Assembly: GCA_034780895.1 (NCBI GenBank)
Contig: JAUZTB010000063.1
Coordinates: 20,017,764 to 20,081,763, forward strand
Origin: Rhynchobatus australiae
Taxonomy: Eukaryota
Direction: 5' to 3'
Length of the DNA stretch: 64,000 nt
Shown here: piece after piece, positions 6,031-64,000 of the stretch
Layout of the letters: each line of letters begins with the position of its first letter
Position numbering within the stretch: the stretch's first letter is position 1
Position numbers and translations under genes: made by a program
The notes under the pieces: model-generated
Databases searched by the model: none
What the model was told of the DNA's origin: nothing
The model's input: the letters and a program-made list of their open reading frames with translations, nothing else

Positions 6031-9000
6031 CCTTGCCTCCCATAGAAACCTAGGGTATATGTCATCAGTGTCTGGGGATTTATCCACTTTTAAGCAATAC
6101 AGCAAACTGGAAGAAGTGCAAGTGAATTGCTATTTCACCTGGAAAGAGTATTTAGATCCATGCATGGTGGGAAGGGAAGAAGTAAAAGTGCTGATTTTGT
6201 TTTCCTTGCCATTACATGGGAAGATGCCCCTTGAGAAGGGGACTGGTTGTTGCAGATGGAAGAGTGGAACCCACATCCTGAAGATGTGCAAGTTGATGGA
6301 CTACTTGGCCACTAGGGGAGTTGATGGGAATGTGTGTAAAATAAAATGGAATTCATGTGAGTGCTTGATGGTCACTGTGTGGGCTGAATGGGATGAGGGG
6401 CTAGTTTATGTGCTCTGTGACTATTGGAATTCTTAACTCAAGACTGAAAGCTCATTTGCTAAGTTTATTCAAGATAGAGATGGATAGATTTTTAGATGTC
6501 AAAGGAATGAAGATATTAGCTGAGGACAGTGGAATTGAGGTGAAAGATCAGCAATGATCTTATTGAATGGCAGAGCAGACATGAGGGACTGAATGGCCAT
6601 CTGCTTCTCCTTTTATTTCTTGTGTTGTAAATACAAACCATAAGAGTATGGCATGTGAATGACTAACATTTGTAGAACTGTATTGTAGCTAGGCTTCAGA
6701 AGAGAAACTGGCATCTTGAAGTCAAAATATTTCCATTAGCTACTGTTTAGGCAGTTTCCTATTTTAGTTCTTGTGTGTGCTTACTTAACACATTGGATGA
6801 ATGGCAGGGAGGTCATGGTAGGTTGCTGAAAGGGAGCTGATTAATGGTGAATAAACATGATTTTTCCTATAGCTCTTGCATTTGGACCTTCTACTGGATC
6901 TTCATAAAACATTCTGTAACAATATCTTACAAATGCTTCCAGATAATGATGGATAGTTTTAGAGAGTCAAAACACTAGAAATGTGTAAACTGTTGTTTTA
7001 TGCCAGTTGTGGCTCAATGATGATATCACTCAGCCAACCAATAGATGATACTTTGCCAATTAGGAAACCTTGCTTCATACACATTGTCTATCACAATTCC
7101 CTACATTACAAGATTTTCCAAGTCTTTGTTTATTTTCTTTCTTCTGCCTGAAATTTCATATATAAAATCATATTAGATGTATGTTAGATTTGGACGGTTA
7201 TTTTGTTTTTAATGTCAGAAAATCTGGCCAGATAAATGCCTTCCCAGTGTGTCCAGCATACTATTTTTGTGGAACTTTTGTAAGATATGTCCAGAAAACC
7301 ACTCTGCTTGTAAGGTACATTAACTTCCAGGCATCTGCTTTGGCTTGGTGGTAGTGCTCTCATTTGTGTGTTCGGGCCTTATTCCAGAGATTTGGGTGTG
7401 TAATCTCGTCTGGTAAGATTTGATTACAGGAGTGCCAGACTTCTAGAAGTTCTATCTGTAGGAGGAAGCTTTCAACTAAGGCTTTATCTGTCATAGATGG
7501 GTATGAATGATCTCCTGGTTCTATTTTGAAGGAGAACAGGATCGCTGTTATGTGTTCAGCCCAATATTTGTTTTTGTCTCTCGACCAACAGCATTTTCTA
7601 ATGCCTAAAAAGCTTCTAAGACTTGATATAACTTGTCTGGCTTGTGTTGCATTCTATTGTTTTGTCAAAATAATTTAATGTTGCTTTAGTATTATTAACT
7701 ATTCCTATATGGGGAATTGATTATATTTCACCAGAAGATCGGGGTTTCTCATTGTATGGAAATAGAGGCAGTTTTTTTTGGGGGTGGTGGGGAAGAGTTT
7801 CAAATGTTACACATCTGTTTAATTTTATCATCCACAACAATAAGTGTTTTGATGTTGTAGTCCTCTAATCTACTTTCTGTACATTCTTTAGATCCTTTAC
7901 TACATGACATCTATTTGAATGAAGGGCATTATGTTCCTTGACAAGTAGGGGCTGTGGATACAGTTCTCATCATGTGGTCAGGAATGGGTGTTGAAGATGA
8001 AGCAGGGTTGGTTCATGCCTAAATGCACCTAAAGCAGTATGTTAATTGTGTTTACCATGGAAGATGATTTTCTGCTTTTCTATGGAATTGAATTGCAATC
8101 ATTGTTTGCAAATACTGACCCAATATGACATTTATTTTCTTTTTGTACTGACATTTTGTAGAATATTAAAAAGACATGTAACCAAAGATCAAGATTTAAT
8201 AAAAATTCATAATTTTAAAGACTTCATTCAGAGCTGCTTCTTTGAACAGAATTGAAAGGGCTACAAATAGAGAGGAATGGCACTGGCAGGGTAAGACGTG
8301 TACTTGTCAAGGAAGAGTTCATTGTTGGAGCTGGAGAGACGATCATGTTGGAAGAATAGTGAGAGAGCGGGGTCAGGGTGGGATGTAAGGTCTGGGCCAG
8401 ATGGGGAAGTGATCGGGGTTGGGTAGGAGTTGGGGATAAAAGAGTCAGACAGAGTGTTAAAAGGGACATGGGGTAGTGGGTCAAACAAATAGCAGCAAGT
8501 TTGACAAAGTGGGAGTGAATACTGGGAAACCACTTAAATCACCAACCAGCAAAATACACTCTTTGTTTTTCCCAGCAGCACACCAAGTAAGGTCAGCCCC
8601 TTTAACTTGTGCCAAAGGAGGCCTGAATTCTCCGCCTAGATCTCTTCAGTACATGAATACGTGCAGAATAACTTAACACATGATAGCAGCATCTGAGCAT
8701 GCCTGGCTGCCTTTTCCCTGTACTTGTGGCGGTTGTACAAAATAACTGGAGCAGATTTATGGAAGCGTGTCCCCTGCGAACAACCAATCAGATTTTTGAT
8801 AACATTTATTTAAGTTGCTCACTAACAGGTTCTGCTATGTGCACAAGTTTCTGAGCTCAACAAGCGAGAAACTGCAGAAACTAGAAACCTAAAAATAGAC
8901 AATACTGGAAGATGCTCAACAGGTCAGGCAGCATCTATGGAGAGAGAAACGGAGGTAATATTTCAAGTTGATAACCTTCTATCAGAACTAGAAATTTTAG

Positions 9001-9559
9001 GCTGCTTGTTTTTCAAAAGGTTATCACGGAGGATAAGATAATATATTTATTAGCCACGTATACATCGAAACACACAGTGAAATGTGTCTTTTTGCATTAC
9101 TGAGAATGTGCTGGNNNNNNNNNNNNNNNNNNNNNNNNNNNNNNNNNNNNNNNNNNNNNNNNNNNNNNNNNNNNNNNNNNNNNNNNNNNNNNNNNNNNNN
9201 NNNNNNNNNNNNNNTGTCGAATTGCTCTGGACATTCTTGTGCATTTCCTTGCAGCTGGCTCAAAGACATTGGCAGTTTCTTGTACACTGGTTGATTCTTG
9301 CATTCCAGATAGGATTATGAAAAGTTAAAGTACACGATAGAAGTAAAAACTCCTCCAAAAAGAACCACAAAAAAAGTGATTTTTTTAAACTATTTACTCT
9401 GTTACCCTGATTGAAATTGAAGAGTCTGGAAAGAAATGGTAGAATAGGCTGATCTTTATGAACCTGAAATTTTATATAGGTTGAATTCTCAAAGAACCAT
9501 TTAAGCGGCATTACAAATTTGTCGAAGCTATAGATGTTTTCTGTTTCATTCGCTTGCAG

Positions 9560-10191
9560 GTAACGGTGAAAAAAGGAAACTTAGCACAGAAGAATTTCAG
9601 TTTAAAAAAATAAAGAAGAAAAAGAAAAAGAAACACAAGGAAAGCGAAAAACGAAAGCAGCCCAAAATGTGCAGCAAATCCATTCAAACCGTTTGTTCAG
9701 CATTAATGTCAGAAATCAAAGAGCAGCAGTTGACTTCAATACAAGATGGGAAAAAGCTAACCATTCTGTACCCAGATGATGGATTGCCTGAATGTCTGTC
9801 AGAGGAAAGTGGTCACCTTTTGCCTAATGTGTGCAACAACTCCAGTGTTGAAAACAAAGGTTCAAGGCTAAATATGTTGGAATTCAAAAGGTTTATCCAC
9901 ATAGAAGACCAGCCTAATGGAGGAGCTTCAGTGGTGCATGCCTACATGGATGAGCTCTCTTCACTATCTCCTGTGGAGATGGAGAGATTTTCAGAGGAAT
10001 TTGTGAATCTGACATTTAGTGAGAATAATTCTGCAGCCTGTTATGTCATGGGTATTGTTCATGGAGCTGCTGCGTACTTGCCTGATTTTCTTGAGTACTT
10101 TGCCTATAGCTTTCCAAATGCGCCAGTGAAGATGGAGATCTTAGGAAAGAAGGATATAGAGACAACTACCATTTCAAACTTCAATGCTCAG
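9560..10191 (+). CDS. RSBN1L: RSBN1L internal coding exon (first one seen in window): Lys-rich NLS-like tract and start of conserved domain
   Basis: Acceptor ttcgcttgcAG at 9558-9559, donor CAG|GTAGGG at 10192. Open frame reads ...FKKIKKKKKKKHKESEKRKQPKMCSKSIQTVCS...QPNGGASVVHAY...YVMGIVHGAAAYLPDFLEYFAYSFPNAPVKMEILGKKDIETTTISNFNAQ, recognisable as RSBN1/RSBN1L. The adjacent TMEM60 favours RSBN1L over RSBN1. Confidence 0.93.
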
Positions 10192-10739
10192 GTAGGGTGT
10201 GTGGGTGTGTAATTTAAAATTTAATATTAATGGCACCTGAGGAATTGGTGTTAGTACTTTCAGTTGGAAGCTACATCTGCTATATTTGACTTCTTAAAGA
10301 TTTGTTTTCACTCTACTAGGTTGCCTGGAGAGGGAGGGGAACCTGCCTTGGATATCTCTTTGTGCAATAATGGCTTCTATGGCCAGTCACTTATTGGAAA
10401 TTCCATGCCATCAGAAATAAAAACATAAGAATTTGTATTTCAGTTCATTATTATATGTTGTAAAGTAACCCTTTTCACCACTGGTATTGATGATGATGAT
10501 GATTGTTGAGGTTAGTGAAGTAAACCTGAAAGCCTATCAGAGGGGTCAGCCAGATGTCTGGGTCTCTGACTCTTCCCTTCCTTTCTGGATCTCTCCAGCT
10601 CCATCTCAGGGGTTGGCTTGCCATAAACATCCATTGGAAGCCCATGGACTCTCTCAGCTCTCTTGAACTTGTGTGCAAGCATTCTATTCTCCCAATTCTT
10701 CTTTGCACTTGCTGTAATAATGAGACTTTCTAGATGCCT

Positions 10740-11850
10740 CTGAAATATCTTCCTTCTTCCTAAACTGTGGCTTCCCTTCTCCCATAGTATACAGGGCCCT
10801 TGACCACATCTCATCTACTTAGCCACACCTCTGCCCTCACCTGCTCTTGAACAGGGCAAGAACAGTTCCCCTGAGCCTTGCCTTTCACCCAACCAGCCTC
10901 CCTACTCAGTGGATCATCCTTCATAATTTCCAACAGCTTCATTTAAGATTCCACCAACAGTCACACATCGTCTCCCCTTCCCTTTCAACATTTCAAAAGG
11001 ATTGTTCCCTTTGCAATTCCCTGGTTTTCTCTTCTGTCCCCACAATTCTCAATGGCATCTTACGGCATTTTCCCTGCAGTCATAGAATTTGGAAGTCTAT
11101 GGCAGTCCCTTCACCTCTTCCCTTCCCACCATCCAGGAACCCAAACATTGAGAAACAGTGATTTGCATATACATCTTCCAGTCTAGGGTACTGCATCTGG
11201 TGCTCATGATATGATCTCCGCATGGAAGAGACCATTGGGCAATTGCTTTGCGTTCAATTCACAAGAGTAACTGTAGGCTTCTGATTGCCTACTATTTTAA
11301 TTCTCTATCCCACTTCCATCTGACCTATCAGTTAGTGGCCTCTGCACTCTTATGAGGCTCAACAAAACACCTGAGGAACAGCACCTCATCTAACATCTGG
11401 GCATATTGCAGTCTTCTGGACTAATTCTTCAAGTTTAGTAACTTGCTCTTACTCTCCCTGGTCAGTTCTGTCAGTCATCCATCTGTGATTTTTGACTTGG
11501 ATTTTCTCTCTCCATCGGTGTGGCCTGTTCTGCTGGGCAAGTTCCACAGTCCTGCTATTAGCAACATGCACATGCAACACAGACAAGTAAGCATAATCTG
11601 CTTCTAACTGCTAGACGAACCTATTGGTCTAAATCTATCAGAGATGATCCGTTTTGCTCTACATATNNNNNNNNNNTCCCCCCCCCCCCCCTCCAAATTA
11701 TCTCTGGAACTGAAAACTAACTTGCTTTCTCTGTGTCCTAGTTCTGACAAAAGCAAAGGGGCCAAGATCTGAAACAATAACTCTTTCTCCTTGCACAGAT
11801 ACTGCCCGACTGTTGGATATTTTCTGCACTTTGTTTTTGCTTCAGATATT
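10740..11850 (+). mobile_element. Decayed Penelope-like element (RT-GIY-YIG linker, endonuclease remnant, terminal repeat)
   Basis: Peptides RTVPLSLAFHPTSLPTQWIILHNFQQL, TSSSLGYCIWCS and EEQHLI are typical of vertebrate PLEs. Ends in a hammerhead-like terminal segment at 11740-11782. Confidence 0.75.
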
Positions 11851-14800
11851 TGGTCTTCAGCTGAAAGAAAGTAACTACAACTCCAGTGACTAATTCCATT
11901 GAGAGTCACAGTTTAAGTTTGTGCATAACTGTATGTTACTATATTACCAGGGTGATATTATTAAATATTGTTTATGATATCACATATAGTCCTCCTTATA
12001 TGCCACAGATATTTTGAACATGTATAGATGTCCACACTGAGGAAATGGTCATTGTCTGTAAATGCCGTGGTCCATTGTGTCAGGTGGCTCTCTGCTTTAT
12101 GCTGCTCTAATAGAGAGCAGCCTTTGTATAGCTGTGCCTTCAAAACTGANNNNNNNNNNNNNNNNNNNNNNNNNNNNNNNNNNNNNNNNNNNNNNNNNNN
12201 NNNNNNNNNNNNNNNNNNNNNNNNNNNNNNNNNNNNNNNNNNNNNCTATTTATATTTATTTAGTGGTTTATTGGGTACAAAGGAAAGGTCTTTGGTGTCA
12301 TCCATGTTTTTTTTATCCCCAGGAAGTCTTTGCAGATAATGAAGGCATAGTGTGTAATTATAATATTTATCATGGGTTATTCTAACTGTGTTTTTGTGAA
12401 GCATGAGACTTGAATCTAGTTGAAGCTGCAATAGTTATTTAACCATGTGCTGTGCATACAGAAAATGTATTTCCAGGAACTATTTAAAAAAAAGTTATTT
12501 TGCCATTTTTGGGCAGACCTCTGGTGCCCCATTTGGTTCTGCCCTGCAGAGTGCTAATTCTCATTAGTGCTGTTGGACACCCAACCAAACACTCACAGGT
12601 ATATGTGCTCGGTCTCTACACTGTGCTATCCCTATCATCCTCTTATGCTCCCACAGCAAGAATTGCGCATGGTTCAGTGTGGATAGGTTGTAAATGGGTG
12701 ATGGTGGTGTGCAAGCTGGGTTTTGCAAGCGGGCACTTGGTGCTGATGCGTGAGCCAGATCTTGCTAAATGGTGGAGTAGGCTTGAGGGACTGAGTGGTC
12801 TCCATCTGTTCTTAATTCGCGAGTATGTGATTAAATTAGACGGAATTTGTTCTGTAAATTGTAATGAGATTTTTATTAGAGGTAAGTAAGTATCCATCCT
12901 TGTTTTGAGCTTTATTTGGATAAGATAGCTGCTCTTTGCTCATACAAGGTTCAAGGCACATAGTTTACTTTCTTTAGTTGACAACAGTAAAGCAGCTAAC
13001 ATTAGCTTGTGACTCCAATATCAAGAAATGTCTGCAGCAAGTACATTAATTTGCTAGTTTTTATGCTTTCTCATTGAAATGCATAAAATTATTAAAGTAC
13101 TTGATAGCATTGTCACAGACTCAATATTTCTCCTGGCTGGGGTGTCAGGAGCCAAGGCCACAGTCTCAAAATAAAGGGATGGCCATTAAGGACACAGATG
13201 AGAAATTTCTTCATCCATAGTAAATTTTTGAAATTCTGTACCCAAAAGAGTAGTGACTGTTTAGTCATTATGTTCAGAAAATGACAGCTTTTTAGATAAT
13301 AACTGAATTGAGGGAAATGGAATTAGTGTAAGAAGATGGTCTTAATCTGCTGCAATCTTAATCAGGGAGTAGAAACAAGGGACTAAATGGATTTTTCTTG
13401 CCTCTTGTGTTCCAAGATGAATTTACCTGAACCCCAAGATTCTGATTTCAAAATCTGCCTAAATTTACCAGGCCTTGACCTGCCACTAACCACTTGCTGT
13501 GAGAAACCTCATCCTTGCATTTGCTTCCTCAACTTTCTATTATCTCTGGATTACTTCATATCAATTTTATAATGTTCTCAGTATAAACTGATGAGAACTT
13601 CTGGTATTTGCAAACTATTCAGTCTGTGCTTGCCAGCAAATCATTATTTGTGTGGATTGCACAAATTTGCATTTGAAGGTCTCTTTTATGGGAATTGTTG
13701 CAGATTAATGCTAATTCTGTTTCAGAAATTGATATTAAAGACAAATAGGACTTTAAGGAGGAGGAATAGAATTGGAATTTTCAATTCCCCCTCCATTTTC
13801 TTCAAATATTCAGTATTGGGCAGATGCAATGTTTAAACAATAAAGTTGTTGCTTAACTGCAGGATATTTAATTNNNNNNNNNNNNNNNNNNNNNNNNNNN
13901 NNNNNNNNNNNNNNNNNNNNNNNNNNNNNNNNNNNNNNNNNNNNNNNNNNNNNNNNNNNNNNNNNNNNNNNNNCCTATTTCTTATGTCTCTGTCGTCCCT
14001 CTTGCTTTCCGGGATGAATAGAAACTTATTATTAGTGAACATTTCCAGGAAAATCATTTAGAGAAAGTGGCAGTAAATTGATTTTTTTTTACAATTGTTT
14101 AATGTATTATATAAAGCAAGATAAAGTCATTAAATTTTTACTGAGCAGTAGTTTTTAAAGATATACCATGTGCGATTCTGAAACTGCATTTGGAAAGTAC
14201 ATTGAAGTGAAAGAACTGGGAATTTGTAAAGGTTCCTTTTCATTTTGTAAGTTGGGTTAGTTTAAGTTTTATTATATATTCAAATATTTACAGAACGAGG
14301 CGTTTGGGTTTTTGTAGGAACTTTTTTGTTTTTGGAGAATGTTTTAGGAGAAAAAACATTTGTTTGCATGGTAACAAAGTCAAAGGGACTTTGAAAAAAG
14401 ACTTGACTAAAGCATTATTCATTACAGCAAATGCTGGGGAGATTCCTGAACATGAAATAGAGGCAGGATTGACTCCAAAATCTGCTTTGCCATTGAATCT
14501 GATCATGGTTGATCATCTACCTCAAGTTCATGCAATATTTTTAATGACTGAGCATCATCAACATCCAAAAAAATTATAGCCGTTTGAGTAACTTCTCCTC
14601 GTTTTATTTCAAAATTGTNNNNNNNNNNNNNNNNNCTCCAGCTAGAAGAAAAAGTCTCTGAGCATCTGGCTGTCTCAGAATCTCTGCAAGAACTCTTCTA
14701 TTGTTTAAATTCCATTGAATAGAGAGCAATCCAAGTAAATTTCCCCCAGAATAGTACTGGAGATCAACTCAGTGAATCAGTGCTGGACTGCAATCAAGAC

Positions 14801-14869
14801 AATTTTATCATTTGCTGGATTCTGAGATTAAAAACTATGCACAGTACTCCTGCAAATGCTTAAAAACTT

Positions 14870-15340
14870 GACTTTCAAACACAAAGTGTGGGAAATTCTC
14901 AGCAGGTCAAGTAGCGTCTGTACAGGTAGAAATAGAATTAATGTTTCAGGTTGATAATCTTTCATCAGGAAAACTTAGAGATAAAACAAGTTTTAAGATG
15001 CAATGAAAATGGACAGGGCAGAAGAAAACAAAACTGAAAAGCTACAAATGAATGAAGGCAGGAAGGGTTACATGACAAAAGCAATGGAACTGCAAGGTGA
15101 AAGAAGAGGGCAATTGGACAATTAAGCAAACAAAAGATTAGTCTGGAGAGTTGAATTGCAAACTGACAGTGGAATCTAAATTAAACGTTCTGCAAAAGAT
15201 GATTTTCTGAAATTGTTGAACTTTGTGTTTAGTACAAAGACCATAAACTGCCCAGTTGAAAGATGAGCTGTTTCTCAAGGCTGTATTGGAATGGTGTAGA
15301 AAGCTGATATAAGGGTTGGAGTGAGACAAAATTGTGACAT
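14870..15340 (-). mobile_element. Penelope-like element 3' fragment
   Basis: Terminal repeat motif with CTGATGA...GAAA core on the minus strand; adjacent decayed endonuclease C-terminal sequence. Confidence 0.6.
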
Positions 15341-21273: not shown

Positions 21274-24200
21274 GTGAGTTCAATGTCTAGTGTATTATGT
21301 TAGCCAAGGCTGTAATTTTACCTTTCAGGTGTTAAGCAATCTCTGCTCACTTGCAGTAATTTTCCCTTTAACTGTTTGTCATAGGAATAAGATCTACAAT
21401 CTTTGCGTATCTTCCTAAATCATCAATTTTCCTCAGTTTGTATAATACCAGAAACATTATACTCCAGGTTTTAGAAGTTAATTAAAACTCTAGGGATCCT
21501 TTATATGGACCATGGAAATAAAAATAAATCCAGAAAATACTCAATGGGTCAAGCAGCATTTGTGGAGAGACAAAAACTGAATTAACGTTTTGGGTAGATG
21601 AACTATCAACAGAACTGGAGCTACTAGATTTCATTATTTAACTATGTGGCTGATAATATGGGGAAAATTTTTTTAAAAATTGGATTAATATAGGCTCAGT
21701 ATACATGGGTGGTTGATGGTGGGTGCAAACTTGATGAGCTGAAAGGCCTGCTTCTGTGCTGTAAGTCTCTGAGTCTATCTTCTGTGAGCCTCTGGCTTCT
21801 ATCTATCAAATCTGCCAGTTAAATCAAAGATATGTTGATATTTTTGATGTTCACAGACACTCAAAATTACTTGGGACCTATTAAGAGAGAAATAGTGTCA
21901 AAAATTTTGTGAAGAATTAAATAAACATATACTTAAAAAGAATTCTAACATTTTAAATTTTCTTCACTAATTCACATAAAAAGATTCTTTTAACCTTCTG
22001 GCAGCTGTTCATTTTAATAGGTTGGATGTGTTTACACCAGGTTAATCTGATGTGGGTTCAGTGAGTAGATCTCCCAAGCAGAAATNNNNNNNNNNNNNNN
22101 NNNNNNNNNNNNNNNNNNNNNNNNNNNNNNNNNNNNNNNNNNNNNNNNNNNNNNNNNNNNNNNNNNNNNNNNNNNNNNNNNNNNNNNNNNNNNNNNNNNN
22201 NNNNNNNNNNNNNNNNNNNNNNNNNNNNNNNNNNNNNNNNNNNNNNNNNNNNNNNNNNNNNNNNNNNNNNNNNNNNNNNNNNNNNNNNNNNNNNNNNNNN
22301 NNNNNNNNNNNNNNNNNNNNNNNNNNNNNNNNNNNNNNNNNNNNNNNNNNNNNNNNNNNNNNNNNNNNNNNNNNNNNNNNNNNNNNNNNNNNNNNNNNNN
22401 NNNNNNNNNNNNNNNNNNNNNNNNNNNNNNNNNNNNNNNNNNNNNNNNNNNNNNNNNNNNNNNNNNNNNNNNNNNNNNNNNNNNNNNNNNNNNNNNNNNN
22501 NNNNNNNNNNNNNNNNNNNNNNNNNNNNNNNNNNNNNNNNNNNNNNNNNNNNNNNNNNNNNNNNNNNNNNNNNNNNNNNNAAGGATTAGGTGAAGGAAGG
22601 CTGAGAGTTTGGGGACATAAAGAATGAATTGACTTGCATCTGTGTATGAGGAGTTTGTTTTATAAGGTATACCTTTACTTTTTTCTGGAGAGTGAGAAGG
22701 TGGTGGTCAGCTGTCACTTTGGATTGCTGTAGTCCTTTGGGTGAAGGTACTCCCACAGTGTTGTTGACTTGGGAATTTAGGGTTTAAATCTGGGTGATGA
22801 AGAAAAGGCAATATATTTCCAAATCAAGATGGTGTGTGACTTCAAGGGAACCTGCAGGTGGTGCTGTTCTGACACATTTTCTGCTCTTGTCCTTAATGGG
22901 AGAGGTTTTGGGTTTGGGTGATACTGCCAGAGTAGTCTAGGCAAATAACTTCAATCCATTTTTTTTTATCTGGCACCCACTGCAGGTATTTGCCTAGACT
23001 ACTGGGGGATCAGGAGGAAAGTTATTCACCACAATATTTGTATGGCTGGTACTTGTATCAGGAGGTGCCTCCATGTTGGATAAGTCTAGTTGTATGTAGG
23101 CATAAAATGCTTCAGTAACAGTTTGGCTATTGAGTGCTTTGTTTATAAAGCAGAAAATTGGTTGGCTGTTAGGTATTAGGGAGTGAGGGAGGATTAAACT
23201 CATGGAAGAATTTGGGGCAAACAAAGATTGTTTGGTGTCATGGATACCTTCATAAATNNNNNNNNNNNNNNNNNNNNNNNNNNNNNNNNNNNNNNNNNNN
23301 NNNNNNATGAAAAGCTGGAAAGATTAGAAGTCCCAAGAGATTTCTTGTTGATAAAGAACAAGAGGGTTCATGTTGATAAAATTTAATGAATGGTTATTCA
23401 AACTAATCAAAAAGGATAATTGAATTCTGGCCATAATATTTGAGAGAATATAGTTACAAAGCCATAATTATGCCTAGAATATTTTGAGCAATTTGGGGAA
23501 TTACAACCTGGAAAGAATGGAGAGAATGCATTGGAGGCTTGCTTTGAGCTCGGAGTTAAATTTATCACCAGAGAATGCACAACCTAGGGTTGATGTGAAT
23601 TGAGAGCTAATTTGGTTAGATAAAAACTATTGCGGCAGAAACTATTACAGTAATGAGTTAAATAGAAGCTATTACTGCTGGCTGGAAAATCTGGGACTTG
23701 GGGTCATGGTTGAAAAATTAGAACAAGTCCTTACAGGAGTGAAGATAGGAAACAAATTGACATGAATCAAATTTAGTATACATTTGGAACTCTTCCATGA
23801 ATAGATGCTAGTTCAGGTGTTAATTTTAAATTTGTGTTTGACAGACTTCAGTTAATCAGAGATATTAAGTGATAAAGAACAAAGGTAGCTGGAGAGAGTT
23901 ATATACTGTAAATAGCTGCTTACTGTTCTAATGTAAGTGCAAATAATTTGCTGTAGTGCTTTCTTATTAAAAAGACTAACAAGATTTTTGCTTTGATAAA
24001 TGCATGACATCACTCCCTTCTTTTAACAAAAAAAAGACTGATAAGATTTTAGAGTAACANNNNNNNNNNNNNNNNNNNNNNNNNNNNNNNNNNNNNNNNN
24101 NNNNNNNNNNNNNNNNNNNNNNNNNNNNNNNNNNNNNNNNNNNNNNNNNNNNNNNNNNNTTCCATAAGAACGAATGTGTCCTAGTCGTGAAAGCTAGGGT

Positions 24201-26404
24201 AAAAATTGTTGATGCTTGGTTCTGAATAGTTTTTGTATTCTTTATTTTAATAACTATTAAAATCAATATTGTGCACAGCCAGCATGACATGAGTTTCTGA
24301 TAAACAATTTTGGCTTGTTCTTGTGTATCTGGGGAGTTACAGTGATTATAATTATGTTTACTGCAACACAGTTGAATTGTTTGAAATATTTGAATTATTT
24401 TGTTCACAGCTCAGAATCCCTATAGTCCTGCATCCAAACAGCTCATCATCTTCAATTTTGCTGAATTATAGTCATAGCATTTCCAAACAAATTAATTTCA
24501 AGATCTTATTGATCTTGCCTTTGCAATTACATGAGATTACATGATGCATTGATATTCTTATGATTGAACATATATACAAGTGCTAATGGAGAAGTGAGGT
24601 GAGGCACAAGAAAGCAGGAATGTCCAAAGTTAGTATTACTGAGATTAACATCTCAGTTCAGAAGTCTGGATATGATTGATCTTGTGGGGTGCTTCAGTAG
24701 CAATGAAACCTAAAGTGATGTGCAAACTGTTAGAATTCTGGATCCTAGAATCATGGGATTACCTGAACAACAAATATCTTGTTTACTTGCTATACTTCTA
24801 ATTAATTCATCTGCAGAAAATTAGGACAAGTAATTTGCCCTTGGGGAAAATATTTCATGTTGGATTAGATTTAGCACCCCCTGTGCCAGTTTCTGTATTA
24901 TCTGTTCCAACAATAGCTAGGTAGATCTGATGCACCTTGCACTGTGAGCGAGGGTTCAACAGTTTCACTTGACAGATGTGACCTTGTAATGACATTATGT
25001 AATTGTATGTATTTAAGAACCACACTGAGGAGAGCTTTGGTCTTGCAGGCTGTGAACAATACTGTATTCTATTTGATGCATGCATCAAAATGTCATTACT
25101 TATGCTAGTTATATTTGGAATTTCTTCGATAACTTGGTGGATACCATGCTAAATTATTTGTGTTTAAGATGTAATAAAACTTAATATTTTGCGTTAATTC
25201 AGACCTCTGAATTGCAGGCAAAATGTAGAGGGTCTTCTTACAGAGCTTTGGCTCATAATGGTCAGATTTCTGACCTTGAAAAACATACTCACTTGTGTCA
25301 CTAGGATTCTTATGAGCAGTTACAAGAAGAGAGGTGCAATGTGTAAGACACCTGAATCTGTAGTTTCTTCTTGCCATAACATAACATTTATTAGTTTGGA
25401 ATTTGACCTCTTGTTTGCAGAGAATTCAATGATACTGCTGATATTGGTGTACTGCTTATTAAGGTTGGGTATGATGTGTGGTTGCTTCACATTTATGTAG
25501 GTCAGGTAGGTTGCCAAGATTTGTCTTATTGATAAATGCATCTATTGCTTGCTGAAGTTGTTCATGTAAGAAAAAACTATACAGGTGAGTGGCAAAAATT
25601 AAAACAAGCAATAATTCACAATTGAATATCTTGTGCACATTTAGCATTGGTATTGGTTCACTACAAAAAATATACCATAGCTATCAGCTGTTGCTGCATA
25701 TCAAACGAGAGTAAGGTGTCATGAATTGTTATACTTTGTTATCTTTAGAATGGTATATATTTCTGGATATGTCTATATCACTGTTTCTATAGAGATGGTT
25801 TTTATCTGATGTGATTCCTACAGCAATACTTTTCTGTTACATTTATCTCTATGGAGCATCTAAAAAACAAGGAGTTCAGTAATAGCATGAACCTCCCAAT
25901 TAGATCTTAAGGAAGGATTCTCCCTATCTCTTGAGCAGTTACTACACCTATAAACATCTCTCATGGTTACTCCTGATTTGCATGATAGATTTTGTTTTAA
26001 ATCTGGGGGCCTAAGGTGGACTTATTCTGAAAGGCAGTAAGTACTACACAATATATAAAGTTCAGGCCAAAATGAATAGTTATATTTGTTGATGATTACA
26101 CAGAAGCAGTAATATTCAGCAAGGTATTGATGAGAATAACATTTGGAAAACAAAGAAAGATCAAGTCCAGAAATACTGGAATACATTTCTTGCAATATTT
26201 ACAACAATCAGCTTTTAGAGTAAAGAATTCTTTTTTGAGCATTTTGCTGCACAATATGCTATGTAATTAATTCCCCATTCATCCCACAAAACGGGACTTG
26301 TGTTATGGGTAGAGGATCAAATTGAGACACAAGAGACTGCAGATGCTGGAATCTGAAACAAAAAAGCAAACTGCTGGAGGAACTCAAAAAGTCAAACGGC
26401 ATTA

Positions 26405-26880: not shown

Positions 26881-27581
26881 TGCCTNNNNNNNNNNNNNNN
26901 NNNNNNNNNNNNNNNNNNNNNNNNNNNNNNNNNNNNNNNNNNNNNNNNNNNNNNNNNNNNNNNNNNNNNNNNNNNNNNNNNNNNNGCAAAGCCAAGACTG
27001 TATTGCAGTAGCATTGTTGTTACTGAAACTGATAACCAAAAATATAGTGTAGCTTAATTCTAGATCAAGCACTGCGAAACCTTAATTTTCTTTAAGGGGT
27101 GAATCATTTTTACCCTTTGAATCACTTAAACCCTTTTAATGTCATTGCCAGAATACTTAACCTTCTATTAACACTGATTATATTCAAAGAGTGTTATGTT
27201 AGTTATTCGGTTGATGTGTAGTTCTGTTCCAGCAGAAAATCCCTAGCTTCCCTGGAGCAATTAAGCAAATACTCCATGTTCAGCACTTTAGCTCCAAGTA
27301 ATGGCAGTTGTTCCATGCACTTCAGAGAAGGATACGAATTGTAGCCATTTGTACTTAATGCTGTAAAGATGACATTTTGCCCACCTAGAGAATATGATCC
27401 AGCTTTTTAAACAGTACACTATAAATTGCTTTTGTTTTATGAGACTACAAGTGAGTTATGTGCACATCTGAATTTTCACTCTCAAAGTAGGGATAATGTT
27501 TGGAGAAAAATGGTTTCGAATATAGTAATATGCCTTCTTGCAGAATGACTGCAAGTGAATAGTACAGACCACTTAGTATCA

Positions 27582-43806: not shown

Positions 43807-44338
43807 CTTATGTAAATTAGCTGTTTGTTATCAACGTAGCATGTTAAAGGAGTTCAGTTGCATAAAATACAAACGGTTTTTGCTTGGAACAGATGGCAGG
43901 TGTGGTGGCAACGTTTCATGTATTAATTTACAGGGTGTTTATATAAAAACATTCACATTTACTTCAATAACCACGATGACTTCACAGAATGCACGGGGGA
44001 ATTGGTTATAAGGAATAACATTTGCAGTTATTTTGACTTAAAAGGATGAGTAAACCACTATTTTCTCCGTGTGCTGTAGTGTAAACAGCAAATGCTGAGT
44101 ATACGCTGCAGGTCAGGCCACGTCCATGGAAGGAGAAACGGAATCGATGACCCTTTCATCAGAACTATAGATGCTGCCTGCCCTGCTAATTTCTTCCAGC
44201 ACCTTCTGTTTTTGTTTCGAATTTCTCATAGTCGCAGGGTTTTTTTTTGCTCCTGTTCGAGCTATTTCAATTTATCGCCGCATGTTGGAGCAGTTACTAG
44301 GCCGGCAATAAAAACTAACGCACTGAGTGAGCACTTCA

Positions 44339-44737: not shown

Positions 44738-44744
44738 CTAAGAC

Positions 44745-48080: not shown

Positions 48081-49339
48081 TCTCAAACTTACTAGACTCT
48101 TGCTGCACTATTTCATTCCTGGAGCCAGCCATTGGCAATTGACAGCTCGTCATCTGATATACTTTTCCAGGATGACAGGCTTCTTGGCTGGCAATGCAGT
48201 TGAGTGAAGATGGAGGTGATGGATAAAGGAGATGCTGAAGCATAAGAGATACGTAGCAGCAATTTGGATGATCTGGAATTTGAGAAGGGAGGAGAGAATG
48301 CCGAGAAAACATTAAATAAATTCTGATGTTGACCTTGACGTGGATAAGCCTAGAGATGTTAAAGATAACAGATGGGTTGCTTTCAAAATGAGGAGAACAA
48401 AATAATAGAGGGTAAACGTAAGAGAAATAAGACTTACAAGTTTGTAAAAAAATCTNNNNNNNNNNNNNNNNNAGTCAAGTTGATTGTAGGCAGGGAGGAT
48501 GATGAGCAGAAGTGAGGGAGCAGGTTTTTTAAAGAAGGCTAACATAATGGCTTCAGTCTTCCCAGTATTTCTTGTCTGTGATGTCTCAGATAGATAAACC
48601 AGAGTTTAACCTTGTTGGATTTCAAGTGTGAAAGGATAGGCTAGAAAGAAAAGCTTTGCAGTTTATAATAATAGTTAAGAATGGAACTGAGTGAGGGTAA
48701 TATTTGTCCAGGCAGTCATTAAAATCATTTGAGAAAGATGTTGTTAACTGTATTAAAAGCTAGATGATGTGGCACAATTAACAGATCTATTTTAATCTGA
48801 AATCAAGTTGGATGGGTGAAACAGAATTACTGGAGGAAAGGAAATGGAATCAAAAGATGGCAAGGATCTTGCATTTAGTAGGCATGGAAGAAGAATGGGG
48901 GATCAAGAGTATTTTTGAGGAGCTAAGTGACAATAGTGGACAAGAGGAAATAAAAGGGACAAAATACAGGATTAGAGATCATTTATAGTCTCAAATTATA
49001 TGAGTCCCAGGTGTGAGACGGGTGATTAGATATTTGGGAATAGAGTTGAGGAAATAATTCCTGAATTTGAAATATAAACACAAAATGCTTGAAATATTCA
49101 GACTCCCAGTCAACTTACCTGAAACATTAACACTATTTTTCTTTCCACAGATGCTGTCAGTTTCCTATTTCAGAAATGTTTGCATCTGCAGTCTTTTGGC
49201 TTTCATCTGTTAGGTTTGATTGACTTACATTGCTGCTTTTAATAAAAGATGTTCTGTGTATGATTCTACATGTCTTTTTCCTGTACTTGCAACATCACAA
49301 AGAAACTCAGAGAGGTTACACTGCTGAGTCCAAGGAATT

Positions 49340-49720: not shown

Positions 49721-51339
49721 TCAACCACCCTGACTTCTTATAAGTAGGTCATTTGGTTTAATATTTTGATTATTTATTTTCAATACTTAAGAATATTTGC
49801 ATCATTACTTAAATTTCCCCCCTTTTCCAATGTTATTCAAGATGTTAAGGAACAAAACTTCTCCAAGCATTTGCCCACTTTTGAGATTTAACAGGCTCTT
49901 TGAGTATGAGAAATGCTGTCATTTACCTGAAATCCTGTANNNNNNNNNNNNNNNNNNNNNNNNNNNNNNNNNNNNNNNNNNNNNNNNNNNNNNNNNNNNN
50001 NNNNNNNNNNNNNNNNNNNNNNNNNNNNNNNNNNNNNNNNNNNNNNNNNNNNNNNNNNNNNNNNNNNNNNNNNNNNNNNNNNNNNNNNNNNNNNNNNNNN
50101 NNNNNNNNNNNNNNNNNAATATTTATATAGAACTTACAGGAAGAATTTGGCCTTTTGGTCCTGACTGACTCTTGTCACTGTTGATGTTGCATGTGAGACT
50201 TTTTTCCCATCTAATTCATCTGTCCTTTTAACACTTCCATCTAATCCTTCTGATCCTGTCTCCTTCGTGCATATATCCAGGTTCCCTCCAAATGCAACAA
50301 TGCTATCCACTTCCACGTGTCATGTGATTCTGCATTCCACTCAATTGCCAACCTAGAATGTGCACTCAAGTCTTTGGGCTTGTATGTGTGATGTTCTGAC
50401 TCAAAAAGGCAATAATGTTACCACTGAGCTAAGGCTGTTGCCTTAAATAAGCATGCAGGGATGATGTTTATGTGTGAAGAATGCCAATGTGAATGCAGGG
50501 GTTTTGGAGAAGAGAATTGTCTGTAAAAGAGCAAGGAATTGAACAGAATGCAGTATCTCTCGAACCACATATGAATGAATGAAATGCCTTTAAGTTTAAA
50601 CATTGGGTTGGGGTTAGATCCAGGAGAATGACTATTAAAATAATTACTGGTAAGTTGCATTGATGGAAAAGGCAAATGTTTTAAATTATTTTAATCTAAC
50701 ATTTTTAATCACAAAGAATATTGGTATTTTGTAATATTCATGTAATATTTTAGTTTTAATGTCAAAATTGTAAAATTTTCCAGAGGGATGTTTTATTAGT
50801 AATGCACCAGTTTTGCATTGTCAAGACTTAGATTTTTGCTTCATAATTAATGGTCTTACATTAATATTCCTCTATTGTGTATACCTAAATTTGATTGGTT
50901 GCTTTTACATGTTAGTGCCTTTCTTTACTCATCGGTTACTGGGGTCAGCATCAATTATTTTGAAGCTGTTGGTCAGCTTTTGCTATTTTTCTCAGTGACT
51001 TAATATGACATATTAAGTTATTGACCAATGTACAAATTAAGCAGTTATACAATTCTCTCTGATTTCAAGAAACTAGTGAAATTGGAAGCAGGAACCTACA
51101 GGCCAGTTTGCCTAACATTTGCCAAGAGGAAAATGCTGGAATCCATTATTAAGAAAGTAGTAGCAGGGTATTTAGGAAATTATAATATAATCAAGCAGAA
51201 TTAACATGGTGTCAAAATGGAGACACAAGAGACTGCAGATGCTAGAATCTGGTGTAACAAGTAATCTGCTGGAGGAGCTCAAGGGTCGAGCAGCATCTGT
51301 GGGAGGAAAGGAATTATCAAAACCCTGCATCAGGACCTG

Positions 51340-51600: not shown

Positions 51601-53319
51601 TTGAGAGCATTCCTTCCAAATATGGTCAAACTAGTACTCTTTGCTTTTCCTTTGTTCAGGCTCGCATTCTTCTTTCCATGGTATTTTCCATCCCCATTCC
51701 CTTTCAATAAAGGCTGGCATTCTTCCTTCTTATTTCTGCAATACATGGTACTATCAGTCTTTTCTCATCCCCAATTGTGGTCTGGACCACCTTCTCCCTT
51801 GTCCTCAAAACACTGACTCTCCTACACCAACAGCCATTTACGTTCATTTTCAGGTCCTCCCTGTATTATGAACACCTGACTTATGGACATCCATGCAAGT
51901 GAACAAGCATTGAGAGGCCGGAGGGATGGATGGGGATGGCTTCTGCAGGGCTGCAGGCATCTTCTGCTGGATGGGCACAGGGCATTTCTGCTTGCCTTCT
52001 CTCCCCACCACATTCCCACCTCCCNNNNNNNNNNNNNNNNNNNNNNNNNNNNNNNNNNNNNNNNNNNNNNNNNNNNNNNNNNNNNNNNNNNNNNNNNNNN
52101 NNNNNNNNNCTCACTCACTGAGTCAGTGAGGCTGGCTGGTGACCAATCATCTTGCGCCTGCTCACTCTCCCGTCATAGCTGTCCCTGTAATATTCTCCTA
52201 CATACTGTTGTTGTTCATTTCCAACGTACAAACAGTTCTCAGTAACCTAGGAACTTCCTGTAGCGGGAAAGTGTTGACATTATGTGATATTATGGTGCTT
52301 GTTTTATCAAAGCACTGAAATAGAATATTGCAGTTCCTTGTTAAAACCACAGAATGGTGGAAATACTTAACAGGCCAGACTGCATACAAAGGAGTCTGAT
52401 CTGCCTCTTATGCACTATTTTATGCCTTTATTTCAGTCTTCTAGAATCCATTGTATTTTGCTTTGATGTGGTGCTGCCTCTTGTATTTCTAGTTGGATGT
52501 TATGCATATAAAGCCAATCTGCAACGCAGATAACCTGCCTTAATAAAATGTACCATCAATTTAACAGAATAGACCAAGAGATTAAACACTTCACTGCAGT
52601 GTATCAAGTATCCAATCAGATACTCTACCATAAAAATCAAGTAGACAAAAATAATGCTGTGATACAAATGCAATTATGGATTGGTATCCCCACAAAAAAA
52701 GAGCAGACAAACATCAATGAGTATCAAGGGGAAAATGCTCCAGTGGTTAGTCTTGTCTAGTGCAAAGAGAGATGGCTATGCTTGTAGGCAGCCAGTAATT
52801 CCATCCCCAGGACATCATTGCAGGAGTTCCCCAGCTGTTTCATCAATGATCTTCCTTCCATCATAATGTCTGAGATGTGGAAGCTTGCTGATGTTTGCAA
52901 TTCTTTTAACAACTACTCAGCAAATAAAATAGTCTACACCTACATACAGTAAGAACCGGACAATATCCAGACATCTTCAGTTGTCACAAAGGGCCTTTGA
53001 GCAAATACATTAACTTTGTTTCTTTTTCCACAGATGCTGCCTAACCAGCTGTGCAACTCCAGCATTTTTGTTTTTGTCTCCGGGAGCTAACTGGTGAGGA
53101 TGTATGTGACAGTTATTAAGCAAAGGAGCAGATTAGCTTTCTTCAGCTTTTCTAAAAAGCTGCTTTATTAGCAAATACACGATGGATGCAATAATGAAGA
53201 AATATTTGTCTATCCATCCATTGCTTTGATCATTTGACAAAATTTGAAAGTTGTAGGATTTTTATATTCACCCATCACTTAAAACTTTCACTCCTTGAAT
53301 TTCCATTAGGGCACATTAG

Positions 53320-53635: not shown

Positions 53636-54134
53636 TGACTGTTGGGGTCTTCCCAGCTTTTCAGATTTTCGATACCTTCAGTTTTTATGCTCATAAATTG
53701 TACCAATTATCTCGTTGTTATCATCTTTCTTTTTATGGGATGTGATGTGCACAAATCATTGTCTGCAGTCCTTACATCCCAACACTCAAAATGCCATAGC
53801 ACATATGCCATTGGCTGTAAAATGCTTCGGGACATCCTGGGGTTGTATAAGGTTCTATATAAATGCAAGTTGTTTCTTTTTGTGTCACCTGTGATGTGGG
53901 TCATGCCTACGTTGGGGCCAGGCTTCCGAATCCAGCCACACCCTGAAGTGCAATGAGCCCGTGTTACCAAGCACCTCTCCAGGGCCCGTCTCCGGACTGA
54001 TTCTTGTCTTCGTTTTCTCAGGATCCAGACTTTGCAGGAAAGACCAGCATTTACTACCCACACTAATTCCCTTTGAGAAGATGGGGGGAGGGGGGCACCT
54101 TCATAAACTGTTGCAGTCCCACTGGTGAGGGTAA

Positions 54135-54448
54135 AAAAATAAGCTGCTGGGGGAACTCAGCGGGTCAGGCAGCATCTGTGGAGGGAGATGGACCGTCGAC
54201 GATTTGGGTCAAGACCCTTCATCTGGACTGATAGAGGGGAAATAGTATAAAGTGAGGGGAAGGGATGGAGTGAAAGGTGACAAGTGATGGGTGGATCCAG
54301 GTGAGGGGGCGATAGGTGGATCCAGGTGAGGGGTGATGGGTGGATCCAGGTGAGGGGGCAATAGGTGGATCCAGGTGAGGGGTGATGGGTTGATCCAGGT
54401 GAGGGGGCGATAGGTGGATCCAGGTGAGGGGTGATGGGTGATGGGTGG
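54135..54448 (-). mobile_element. PLE terminal fragment with hammerhead-like core and internal minisatellite
   Basis: Reverse strand reads AGTC-CAGATGA-A-GGGTC-TT-GACCC-AAAT-CGTC-GAC at 54195-54229. Confidence 0.7.
54291..54440. repeat. Minisatellite: alternating 25/24-nt units (49-bp higher-order repeat x3)
   Basis: GTGGATCCAGGTGAGGGGGCGATAG alternates with GTGGATCCAGGTGAGGGGTGATGG; six units, running into a gap. Confidence 0.95.
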
Positions 54449-57420: not shown

Positions 57421-58434
57421 TAAGTGATGTGGATTAGAAATGGATGAAGGCGCTTGGATTTGCTAATGTTTGAAATAATGAGACTACGTAGTGGCTGGAT
57501 ATAATAAACCTATTTAAATTTAAGCTAACCGTGATGGTGTGTTGNNNNNNNNNNNNNNNNNNNNNNNNNNNNNNNNNNNNNNNNNNNNNNNNNNNNNGCA
57601 GTTTTATTCCTGTGAGGGGCCTATCGATTCATTCTCCAGGGCTGTGGATGTATTTTGTTGAATAGAGTTCATTTCTTGTTTTAAGATTGCCTTGTTGATG
57701 TGATGGATGCCGGCTAGTATTCGATGAGCTATTTGAAAGAAATAAATAATTTAGTCCTTCGGTTTTGATAGCAGTGGTGCACCATTCTGTATTGTTTCTC
57801 CTTGGTAATTCAGTATGTAAAGAAAATTGTGAAGGTACTAGAAAGGAAGTAACCCTTTGTTTTAGAATAAGGCCTGGAAGGATCGACCAAAAATGTAACA
57901 TCAGAATTCTGCTTGGGGCATATTTGAGCTCATCAAGAAGTCTGTAAACCACAGTGAAGAAAGTGCTTCTATTTTTTTCCTTGCTGTATAATTAACTTTC
58001 TATTTTTGCAAATGGTATAATGCAAAAGCACTATGTCTGTATTCCTATTTGCTCATAAATGAACATCTGATCTTTCACTGATTTAACTGGGACTGAAATT
58101 AGTTATTTAGCAAGTCTTGATGTGCTTGCCAGTACTTTGGTCTTCACGTGGGTGACCTTGGTTTATCAATGTGCAGCATCCGCAAGCATTCTTGAAGCCC
58201 TGCATTGGTATGACGTGGTACGCTGTGTATAGCTTGTTCTTCAGATGCCCTCTGTTTTATCTTTGGTTTAGTTATGTCATTTTTGAGTGATTCCCAACCA
58301 TCTTTTCTAGTATTTTCCCTTAAAGAGAATATTCAGCTATATACTGAGTGATGGGGTATAACATGAGGTGATTTTGTTTTCAATACAAGAATAGTAAATC
58401 AATTCAACCTGTGGCTCAGGTGAAAACTTCAAAT

Positions 58435-58790
58435 GGAGACACAAGAGACTGCAGATGCTGGAATATGGAGTAACAAACAATCTGCTGGAAGAACTCAGTG
58501 GGTTGAGCAGCATCTGTGGCAGGGGGAGGAGGAATTGGCAACGTATCAGGTCGAAGCTCTGCATCAGGACTAAGGAGAGTTAGCCAGTATAAAGAGGAGA
58601 CGGGCCAGTCGGTGATTGATGGATTGAGGAAGGGTGGAGTTGGGAGACAGACAGGTGGATGATAGATGGAGGCAGGCAGAAAAAACAGAGCCAGGTAGGG
58701 GAGGGAAGTGTTAAGGCGGAGGCAGCTAAGAGGGTAATAAAGTAACAACACAATGGCTACCAGTGCTGGAATCTGATGTGTTTCTCTAAC
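58435..58790 (-). mobile_element. PLE terminal fragment
   Basis: GAGACACAAGAGACTGCAGATGCTGGAAT terminus shared with ~26325, ~27582 and ~51222; hammerhead-like core at 58536-58571. Confidence 0.7.
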
Positions 58791-62317: not shown

Positions 62318-62399
62318 AATATTCCCAGTGCAATGTTGCCCACCAGTTTCATTCTTAGTTCCATTATTAGCTGATGTTATTAATGGATCTCTCTTGGGA

Positions 62400-63600
62400 T
62401 AGTGCTCATCCATCCTTGGGGAGTTGCCCTCTCCTCTATGAAATGTGCTGTGGTCAGCCCTATCCTTAAAAAAAACTGTTCTGTCCTTGCAAGTTACTGC
62501 TCTATTTTCATCCTTTTCTCTTAGTGCTTAAATGTATTGTAGCATCCCAGATTCCTGCCCATATTTCTTGAAATAACATATTTAAACCTGCTGGAGCACC
62601 ATCTCTCCAATCAGGAATCTGCCCCTGCAGCCCCCTGAAATGGCTCTTATTAAAGTGGCTACTCACATTCTGTGACTGTAATAAATGTAAACTATCCCTA
62701 GTTGGGGTTATTTATCTGTGTGCATTTCAGTGTGATTGACCACACCATTCTCTTCCACTATCCAGCAGACTGCATTCTTATCTATCCAATAATAGCCACA
62801 GGATCTTTTGAAATGGGTTCTTTTTGTGTTCCTGGACCATACCCTCTGGTGTCTGCTAAGGATTTGTTTTCGGTGGCATCCTATTTCTCATTTACTGGCT
62901 ATAATTTGGAAACGTACAATAATTGATGCTGTGGTTTTAGAACATGTGCTGACTGCACAGAGCTGTATCTTGCCACCAGCATTCTTGATTCTTCCACTGA
63001 CTCTAAATGGTCAGATTGCTTGCCCATTTTCCATGACTGAATATTGAGAATACAAGCACTTGTCCTTAGTTCCTTTCAAAATCTCCATTCACAAGTCATC
63101 GACTTCAGGCTTTTCAGGGCAATTGGTATGGCTGGCTCAGTCTATGTGCAACCTAGTTGTCTTGTTGAACCTTTATGCTTCTGACAATGTTAAGCTAAAC
63201 AACTTTTTTTAACCTCTATAATTTTGACAAATTCTGCCTAGGCCTTGGCTCAAATCCTCATATTTGCCTATGCTATGTCTAGGCTTTACTATTCCAATAC
63301 ATTCCTGTCCAGCCTCCCATGTACTATCCTTAATAAATTTGTTATTCGGAACTCTGCTACTCATGTTGTTTCTCTTGGCATGCCCCATTCACCCATCACA
63401 TCCATGCAAGATGATTTGTAGTGAATAAGCAAAGTTTTTTTTAAAGTTATCATCCTTTTCAAATTCCTCCATGATGTCAGTGCTTCTATCTCTATAATTT
63501 GCTCCAGTTTGAAACCTTCCCAACTCTAACAATGTACTTTTTGAACATCTGGATTTTACATGTTCTATTGTTGCTTCAGCTGCTAAGATCCTAAGCTCAG
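62400..63600 (+). mobile_element. Highly decayed L2 LINE
   Basis: Remnant RT motifs (EMALIKV, AFSVIDHTIL) and an L2-like C-terminal region. Confidence 0.5.
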
Positions 63601-63629
63601 GAGTCCCATTCATGAAGCACCTGGTCTCT

Positions 63630-64000
63630 AATGAACAATGAATTTTCCAGTTTTGGGTAATTCGTTCCCCCTCTATTCCTTTCCCGCTCCCACCAGTCCT
63701 CCCTTTGTGGACCTTTTCCATCCCTCCCTCGTTACTAAGATGTCATCCTCCCCCATTTGGTTCCATCTGGTAATCTCCCACTTGCCTATCTACTTCCATT
63801 TCTTCTCCCTTAGTTCATTTTTTTTTCTTATCCCTGCGCCCACCTGGTTCCATCTTCCCATTATCCTTCCCTTATCTGGTTCCACCTATCGGTCACCTTC
63901 CCCCTTATTTATGGCTATTTTCTCCCAATACTCCTGGTCATGATGCAGGTGCTTGACCCAAAATGTTGGCCATGCCTTTGCCTCCACAGATGCTGTTTGA
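63630..64000 (+). mobile_element. PLE 3' region with pyrimidine-rich repeats and hammerhead-like core
   Basis: ORF end MNNEFSSFG*, CACCTGGTTCCATC monomers, and GGTC-ATGATGCA-GGTGCTTGACCC-AAAA-TGTT-GGCC at 63936-63971. Confidence 0.6.

Follow-up and report, generated by a model that had tools for sequence, protein, structure and literature searches.

The window analysed here, a 64,000-nucleotide stretch of the Rhynchobatus australiae genome, holds a family of decayed repeats that are very probably the 3′ ends of Penelope-like elements (PLEs), likely of the Neptune clade and likely truncated on their 5′ side, which carry the known minimal type I hammerhead motif and are likely dead in every copy present (Table 1). 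The repeats share one layout, follow a PLE open reading frame in two copies, and are damaged. Within a younger group, termed B-type, two subfamilies with non-canonical cores, new here, appear to have spread with the core already altered.

Table 1. PLE remnants and repeat copies in the window. Copies are named in the text by their first position in reading direction.
Feature	Position	Strand	Details
Frameshifted 3′ part of PLE ORF (RT thumb, linker, GIY-YIG end)	10569..11432	+	RSBN1L intron; tblastn with ray protein P0004, E 3e-15
GIY-YIG remnant upstream of copy 39843	40003..40300	-	Score 68; outer limit approximate, by eye
Second PLE ORF remnant (linker, GIY-YIG start)	6085..6336	-	tblastn E 5e-8
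Family A motif (8953-8989) and tail	8865..8989	-	G8>A, A9>G
Family A motif and tail behind PLE ORF remnant	11740..11856	+	G8>A, U16.1>A, insertion
Family A motif and tail	14849..14972	-	11/11 core letters intact; stem I and palindrome broken
Family A motif and tail	21496..21616	-	A6>T, G12>A
Family A motif and tail	39730..39843	-	Three core changes
Degenerate family A copy	43541..43651	+	Not previously listed; profile E 3e-15
Family A copy, motif 3′ half deleted	44081..44166	-	About 170 bp past TMEM60-like stop codon, same strand
Tail-only piece, directly inverted relative to copy 44166	44168..44242	+	
Family A motif 3′ half and short tail	49117..49158	+	Profile E 5e-8
Degenerate family A copy	52979..53089	+	Not previously listed; five core changes
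Tail-only piece near A9C subfamily	26319..26402	-	
Tail-only piece inverted relative to copy 27728	27576..27675	-	Arms 67 nt, 88% complementary
A9C-subfamily motif and tail	27728..27836	+	G12>A
A9C-subfamily copy, motif 3′ half deleted	51216..51337	-	Not previously listed
Probable U4A-subfamily motif and tail	54105..54229	-	G12>A, A15.1>T in this copy
A9C-subfamily motif and full tail	58430..58571	-	A14>T
A9C-subfamily motif, cut off at window end	63936..64000	+	C3>A, G12>A

One repeat family with a hammerhead layout

A profile seeded with eight copies recovers 17 copies of one homologous repeat end of about 130 bp, motif plus tail, at E<1e-3 in the window; nine of these are non-seeds, and the reversed window searched with the same profile as a control gave no match at E<=1. 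The density is one copy per 3.6 kb (60,820 non-N bases), and 14 of the 17 retain part of the hammerhead motif, the remaining three being tail only. The ten stretches listed in the initial annotation, correct in all coordinates and strands, belong to this single family. With 25,109 contigs aligned to it in one run, the repeat is a very abundant fossil. DNA patterns for the motif or the tail matched nothing in metagenome, viral and prokaryote genome collections (the latter two scanned twice each), and a search for junk translations spanning the motif returned no candidate. The tail contains a pyrimidine run ending in CAG and then ATG, which resembles a splice acceptor and a start.

At the level of the family, the proposed minimal type I layout is supported: ten copies together retain 86 of 110 core letters, and 72% of stem cells are paired, versus 12-43% with slid partners. 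An extra base between positions 9 and 10.1 occurs in all ten (A in nine), and the palindrome at 15.2-16.2, which has no loop 3, reads CG in four of ten copies and CA, TG or TA in the others (76-79% intact per base in run X1). The sequences originally quoted for the two layouts proved idealised, exact CGTT-AACT occurring in no family A copy and exact CGTC-GAC only in copy 54229; the 5′ arm of copy 14972 is TTTC.

Single copies, taken as hammerheads, are not above chance. The exact descriptor of Cervera Fig. S7 (two stems, CUGANGA, GAAANNUH) has no match in the whole window, so the descriptor check suggested earlier passes no individual copy, and a relaxed version gives 13 matches, one of them a family member, compared with 6-13 in eight Markov controls. 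Hammerheads are likewise missing from the ten Rfam matches at E<=10. The CpG-aware majority of the ten copies passes the S7 descriptor; the family A majority fails it even when CpG-aware, and the B majority needs position 9 unconstrained in order to pass. By column, the family A majority reads CUGA with A9, and G8 is split 3:3 through CpG decay.

Compensatory change had been claimed for both stems, with different outcomes. In stem I the switch is real, the pair 2.1-1.1 being UA in five copies, CG in three and unpaired in two, and it is a single event. In stem II the claim fails: the A copies are mixed at 11.1-12 (TG three, CA two, AA one), and this TG/CA mixture is the mark of a decayed CpG, so that the switch is largely CpG decay. 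Position 10.1, a G paired with C11.1 in the published class, is G in all four B copies and A in four of six A copies, where the pairing partner is ambiguous. The covariation score is not above shuffles (0.291 versus 0.264 +/- 0.045; 133 of 500 shuffles as high). CpG decay itself, as first suggested, is supported, and inactivity of the copies is likely.

Chance-level single copies, the absence of an Rfam hammerhead and the non-significant covariation speak for the resemblance being a coincidence in an ordinary repeat. This reading, already largely refuted, strikes us as highly improbable, since the repeat agrees with the published consensus in its location downstream of a GIY-YIG ORF, in each of the core boxes, in the additional base that follows position 9, in the palindrome and in two stems. 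Moreover, the window profile recovers the hammerhead motif of a distant PLE locus (L013, E 5e-4), a motif that hardly differs from the one given for the Acropora Neptune element in Cervera Fig. S3.

Penelope-like origin and host gene context

The Penelope-like origin proposed at the outset is borne out by same-sense ORF remnants lying 310 bp upstream of copy 11740 and 160 bp upstream of copy 39843, with frameshift-aware scores of 103 and 68 against a mean of 30 and a maximum of 47 in 38 reversed windows; a 10-N assembly gap separates the first remnant from its motif. Linkage to PLE RT/GIY-YIG ORFs is thereby found for two of the 14 motif-bearing copies, both of family A, and the other 12 have no significant link in the window. 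What looked by eye like a further link, at 14972, fell short of significance (score 35, nhmmer E 0.56) and is not counted, and no hammerhead motif was found behind the PLE ORF remnant at 6085..6336.

Homologues of the ORF remnant carry Pfam RVT_1 and GIY-YIG, and among named proteins its closest relatives come from sharks and rays. A HMMER search with the decayed ORF returned 31 relatives at E<=0.001; Pfam, run on four window translations, left the decayed ORF undetected, and of 206 candidates in a word-indexed protein search with the same query, none received a score. The nearest relatives, P0004 and P0029 (43% identical to each other), join an RT to a C-terminal GIY-YIG through a CX2-5CxxC linker, P0029 being a full protein with linker CX4CX2C, and the window holds only damaged remnants of this arrangement. 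Linkers of the CX2-5CxxC type mark Neptune/Nematis (PMC8557442), and the element is likely a Neptune, a placement read from the linker motif rather than from a tree.

Drawing on published work, we suggest that reverse transcription would begin within the tail of ~100 nt that follows the motif and would mostly halt early, leaving solo pieces of motif and tail, sometimes with an inverted partner; the inverted tail pieces agree with the PLE arrangement described in PMC8557442. In an active element, two motifs would pair via the palindrome behind GAAA to form helix III, with cleavage after position 17. To cut RNA, the motif would need to form a dimer or be assisted by a protein. After insertion, G8, G12, the palindrome and the pair at the cleavage site probably decayed through methyl-CpG deamination. 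The older family A would represent the canonical core, and A9C or U4A was likely present before each of the two younger subfamilies amplified.

As annotated, copies 11740, 14972, 21616 and 27728 lie in RSBN1L introns; copy 8989 is upstream of the first mapped RSBN1L exon, and the TMEM60-like protein has no exact-sequence match in the protein collection. Two of the intronic copies, 11740 and 27728, share the sense of RSBN1L, and copy 44166 sits just behind the TMEM60-like ORF, also in its sense, an arrangement that could hint at domestication as intronic or 3′-UTR ribozymes regulating RSBN1L or TMEM60. We regard this as extremely unlikely, since core letters or half of the motif are missing from all three, the two RSBN1L sense copies are 16 kb apart, and the damage follows neutral CpG decay. 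The finding says nothing on host gene control.

B-type subfamilies with altered cores

Position 9 is C in four of the five B-type copies in the window. At copy 54229, position 4 is A in >92% of contig depth in four runs, a figure in which seed bias is possible, and no U is listed there among the contigs aligned in these runs. G12 accounts for only 35-47% of depth at the same copy, a shortfall that may be due to reference bias and CpG decay. Run X1 contigs aligned to this copy recover A15.1 as well as the fourth pair of stem I (93% each), and their CpG decay is symmetric, both at the palindrome (21%, 24%) and at 17/1.1 (17%, 21%). In a tail tree without 63936 and 49117, both too short, three A9C copies group at only 84/87 support, and no branch is starred. 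Two PLE lineages had been proposed; two is too few, the B copies comprising the A9C subfamily and a second, probable one with U4A. The CUGANGA box, whose absence from the consensus the initial annotation had named as evidence against a hammerhead, is accordingly in part lost from the B-type copies.

Could the B-type pieces instead be non-autonomous, SINE-like or retrozyme-like units with a borrowed Penelope end, copied in trans, whose cores were free to drift to A9C and U4A? No significant ORF remnant lies upstream of any of the five B-type copies in the window, their cores depart from canon, and pLTR-derived retrozymes, one chondrichthyan case included, are described in a recent preprint (bioRxiv 10.64898/2026.07.22.740005). 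However, 5′ truncation alone explains solo ends (Cervera 2014, PMC4209133), the window contains no tandem array of the unit, and the sequences upstream of the B copies lack a common fixed 5′ end: when 14 upstream regions were compared all-against-all by blastn, a single 42-nt match emerged, and this is an inverted tail. We therefore consider trans-copying of the B-type pieces rather unlikely; it would be compatible with our main reading for family A.

A tentative case can be made that in rays the younger PLE subfamilies reached very high copy number after fixing U4A or A9C, while the stems, G5, A6, G8, GAAA and the palindrome were kept, the fold serving as a protein binding or folding signal and cleavage being dispensable. 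Such a spread of altered cores fits the in vitro result that insertion needs no cleavage (PMC11167929).

Relation to known elements and significance

Minimal hammerheads in the pLTRs of metazoan PLEs were described in 2014 (Cervera and De la Pena, PMC4209133), and the ray copies resemble them in type I layout, a CUGANGA box (only partly kept here) plus one further base, stem II, GAAA, a palindrome of two bases, UH and short stem I. In both cases most copies stand alone, derived from truncated elements, and many motifs in their Fig. S3 have U at position 17. Cartilaginous fish are absent from their Table S1 and Fig. S3, and the accessible parts of that paper highlight only a U3-A8 core change, whereas here two subfamilies appear to be A9C or U4A. 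Our literature coverage, outside which most subscription journals fall, gave no paper on chondrichthyan PLE min-HHR cores among the matches listed.

Neptune EN+ PLEs (Craig et al. 2021, PMC8557442) share the order of RT, CX2-5CxxC linker and GIY-YIG with P0004 and P0029, and, with the window copies, a pLTR that combines a hammerhead, a tail and a truncated partner in inverted orientation; the window differs in holding ORF fragments only. In the green anole Poseidon element PAc (Frangieh et al. 2024, PMC11167929), similarly, a stretch of ~100 nt comes after the hammerhead and marks insertion ends. The PAc ribozyme is protein-assisted and dispensable for insertion in vitro, catalytic mutants still inserting. 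Unlike the ray copies, which are decayed and known from sequence, PAc is active, tested and of another clade. Animal non-LTR retrozymes, described in the preprint cited above, also carry pLTR-derived hammerhead repeats, including in one chondrichthyan genome. Those form tandem units with complete motifs, in contrast to the dispersed, solo and incomplete ray copies, among which the window has neither a tandem same-strand pair nor a complete motif.

Our study extends the hammerhead class of 2014 to a ray genome, and the subfamily-level core change is the part worth testing. Whether PLE hammerhead cleavage is needed for element spread is unsettled (PMC11167929, PMC8557442), and Naiads spread without the motif altogether (PMC8557442). 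If a single genome held an old canonical family together with two younger families of altered core, the cleavage requirement would be directly testable, and, if true, the altered-core subfamilies would be a natural experiment on what PLE hammerheads are for.

Repeat family and hammerhead signal

All ten stretches that the initial annotation had listed as hammerhead-like repeat ends are present in the window, and the dispersed repeat is genuine, since a profile built from eight seed copies recovered 17 copies at E<1e-3 (nine of them non-seed) versus none in the reversed window. The conserved unit is a motif of ~36 nt followed by a tail of ~100 nt; 14 of the 17 copies retain the motif at least in part, and three have the tail alone. 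In most copies, for example at 54170-54195 (-), the tail carries a pyrimidine run leading to CAG and then ATG, resembling a splice acceptor and start codon.

Hammerhead position numbers follow the standard scheme. A ribozyme is not discernible in individual copies: the window, which is CpG-depleted (observed/expected 0.22), gave 0 matches to the exact Cervera and De la Pena descriptor (Fig. S7), 13 to a relaxed descriptor versus 6-13 in eight controls, and no hammerhead match in an Rfam search. Core changes number 2-5 in nine of the ten aligned copies; copy 14972, although complete in its core (11/11 letters), is disrupted in both stem I and the palindrome.

Link to Penelope-like elements and host gene

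In a protein search, the broken frame upstream of copy 11740 matched 31 proteins at E<=0.001; among the ten of these examined, all seven named proteins come from whale shark and Atlantic stingray. A GIY-YIG match occurs in 4 of the 15 proteins scanned, one above the Pfam cut-off, and P0029, one of the nearest relatives, joins RT and GIY-YIG through a CX4CX2C linker of the kind that marks Neptune and Nematis (PMC8557442). For 14 copies, 800 bp of upstream sequence was also scored, allowing for frameshifts, against 38 reversed windows (mean 30, maximum 47). Two copies exceeded this null, namely 11740 (103), whose link depends on the way the query was obtained and has a 10-N gap between ORF and motif, and 39843 (68), an independent case; the remaining 12 of 14 scored inside it. 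The window profile also matched one of 14 distant Penelope-like element (PLE) loci, L013 (E 5e-4), whose motif is almost the same as that given for Acropora Neptune in Cervera Fig. S3 (PMC4209133 supplement). The distant loci L004 and L008-L012 have hammerhead-like motifs on the ORF strand with a longer palindrome after GAAA, outside the minimal descriptor.

Six RSBN1L exons map to the + strand from 9559 to 36496, placing copies 11740, 14972, 21616 and 27728 inside introns of this gene, as had been proposed, together with two tail pieces. Among the intronic copies, only 11740 and 27728 lie in RSBN1L sense.

Features mapped in the window
Feature	Position (strand)	Remarks
ORF remnant	10569-11432	E 3e-15; mapped back from protein relative
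Second ORF remnant	6085-6336	Mapped back from protein relative
Tail-like match	11501-11548 (+)	Weak (E 0.05-0.7); in 3' UTR of ORF-bearing copy, upstream of motif
Inverted-partner pair 1	27576-27836	
Inverted-partner pair 2	44081-44242	
Tandem repeat	54275-54440	49 bp x 3; directly upstream of U4A copy in element orientation
RSBN1L exon	9559-10194 (+)	Proteins of Narcine and Hypanus 90% identical, those of sharks and chimaera 75-84%; points to a likely batoid host
Single-exon ORF	44339-44737 (-)	132 aa, Pfam Tmemb_185A (E 1.5e-14); presumably TMEM60-like, TMEM60 being an RSBN1L neighbour
Pieces of another retroelement	60109-60861 (-), 54580-54906 (-), 26415-26625 and relatives	Weak RVT_1 match (E 3e-5); taken to be a CR1-type LINE

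Stem and core changes in the subfamilies

Across the ten copies, 72% of stem cells are paired versus 12-43% with slid partners. Stem covariation, offered earlier as evidence, is not supported, its score of 0.291 comparing with 0.264 +/- 0.045 in shuffles and being reached by 133 of 500. The stem I pair adjoining the cleavage site is U-A in five of the ten copies and C-G in three. Because positions 17-1.1 are uniformly TA in 6/6 A copies and CA, CG, TG and TG in B copies, the proposed compensatory switch in stem I stands as ancestral, although it represents one event only. The stem II difference, likewise put down to compensation, is mostly decay, to judge from the letter mixtures among A copies at 11.1-12 (TG, TG, TG, CA, CA, AA) and 7-8 (TA, CA, TG). 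These TG/CA-type mixtures point to a CpG at both places in the family A ancestor, leaving the closing pair of family A ambiguous.

Position 9 is C in four of the five B-type window copies, and three of these four cluster weakly (support 84/87) when only the tails are compared. Tails are 63-84% alike among C9 copies versus 47-76% among A copies, and the A9C copies are therefore likely younger than family A. At 58430-58571 (-) and 51216-51337 (-), the tail is predicted to fold on itself via CAGAUGCUG/CAGCAUCUG-type pairing (MFE structure), a stem from which reverse transcription might start.

Four sequencing-contig sets (runs), representing three coded organisms, were aligned at 80% likeness to copy 54229 and yielded 25,109, 25,225, 33,393 and 1,713 records. 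In run X1, which may be the same sample as the window, the private changes of this copy at 54187, 54194, 54202 and 54232 are overruled at 92-93%, thus restoring A15.1 and a 4-bp stem I, and CpG decay is symmetric (17-24%) at the palindrome and the 17/1.1 pair. The share of G12 is 35-47% across the four runs. The reference letter stands at 57-60% at the two CpG sites decayed in copy 54229 itself, which indicates reference bias. Compared with that level, every other letter at 54224 (position 4, A in copy 54229) stays below 8% in all four runs, although contigs passing 54224 do overrule the reference eight bases beyond. We consider U4A quite probably a subfamily trait, less probably an effect of seeding. 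Loose contig ends hold two further linker types, which we read as family A and the A9C type.

Proposed mechanism and relation to known elements

The motif resembles, and in family A most likely is, a PLE minimal hammerhead ribozyme, a kind known since 2014 and rightly recognised by the initial annotation, whereas B-type copies depart from the canonical core at one position. Such minimal ribozymes are described as cleaving weakly and only as dimers (PMC4209133). In an anole element, reverse transcription begins in the tail that follows the hammerhead; this ribozyme requires protein, and its catalytic mutants insert in vitro nonetheless (PMC11167929). The structure, damage and genomic context of the window copies are seen directly; the copies themselves would be insertions terminated early, two of them with inverted partners, that subsequently decayed neutrally. 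U4A would likely impair cleavage, as a mutational scan is reported to have measured little activity for single mutants of the CUGA turn (PMC9901934), and the majority of core changes are reported to reduce it (PMC3088659); for A9C, no direct activity value was found.

The Cervera tables (PMC4209133 supplement) lack cartilaginous fish, and hammerhead retrozymes are reported from one chondrichthyan (bioRxiv 2026.07.22.740005). Among the papers covered by word-based literature searches, none matched the A9C or U4A cores. The main value of these copies lies in possible core changes at the subfamily level, and the subfamilies with changed cores may either spread autonomously or be copied in trans.
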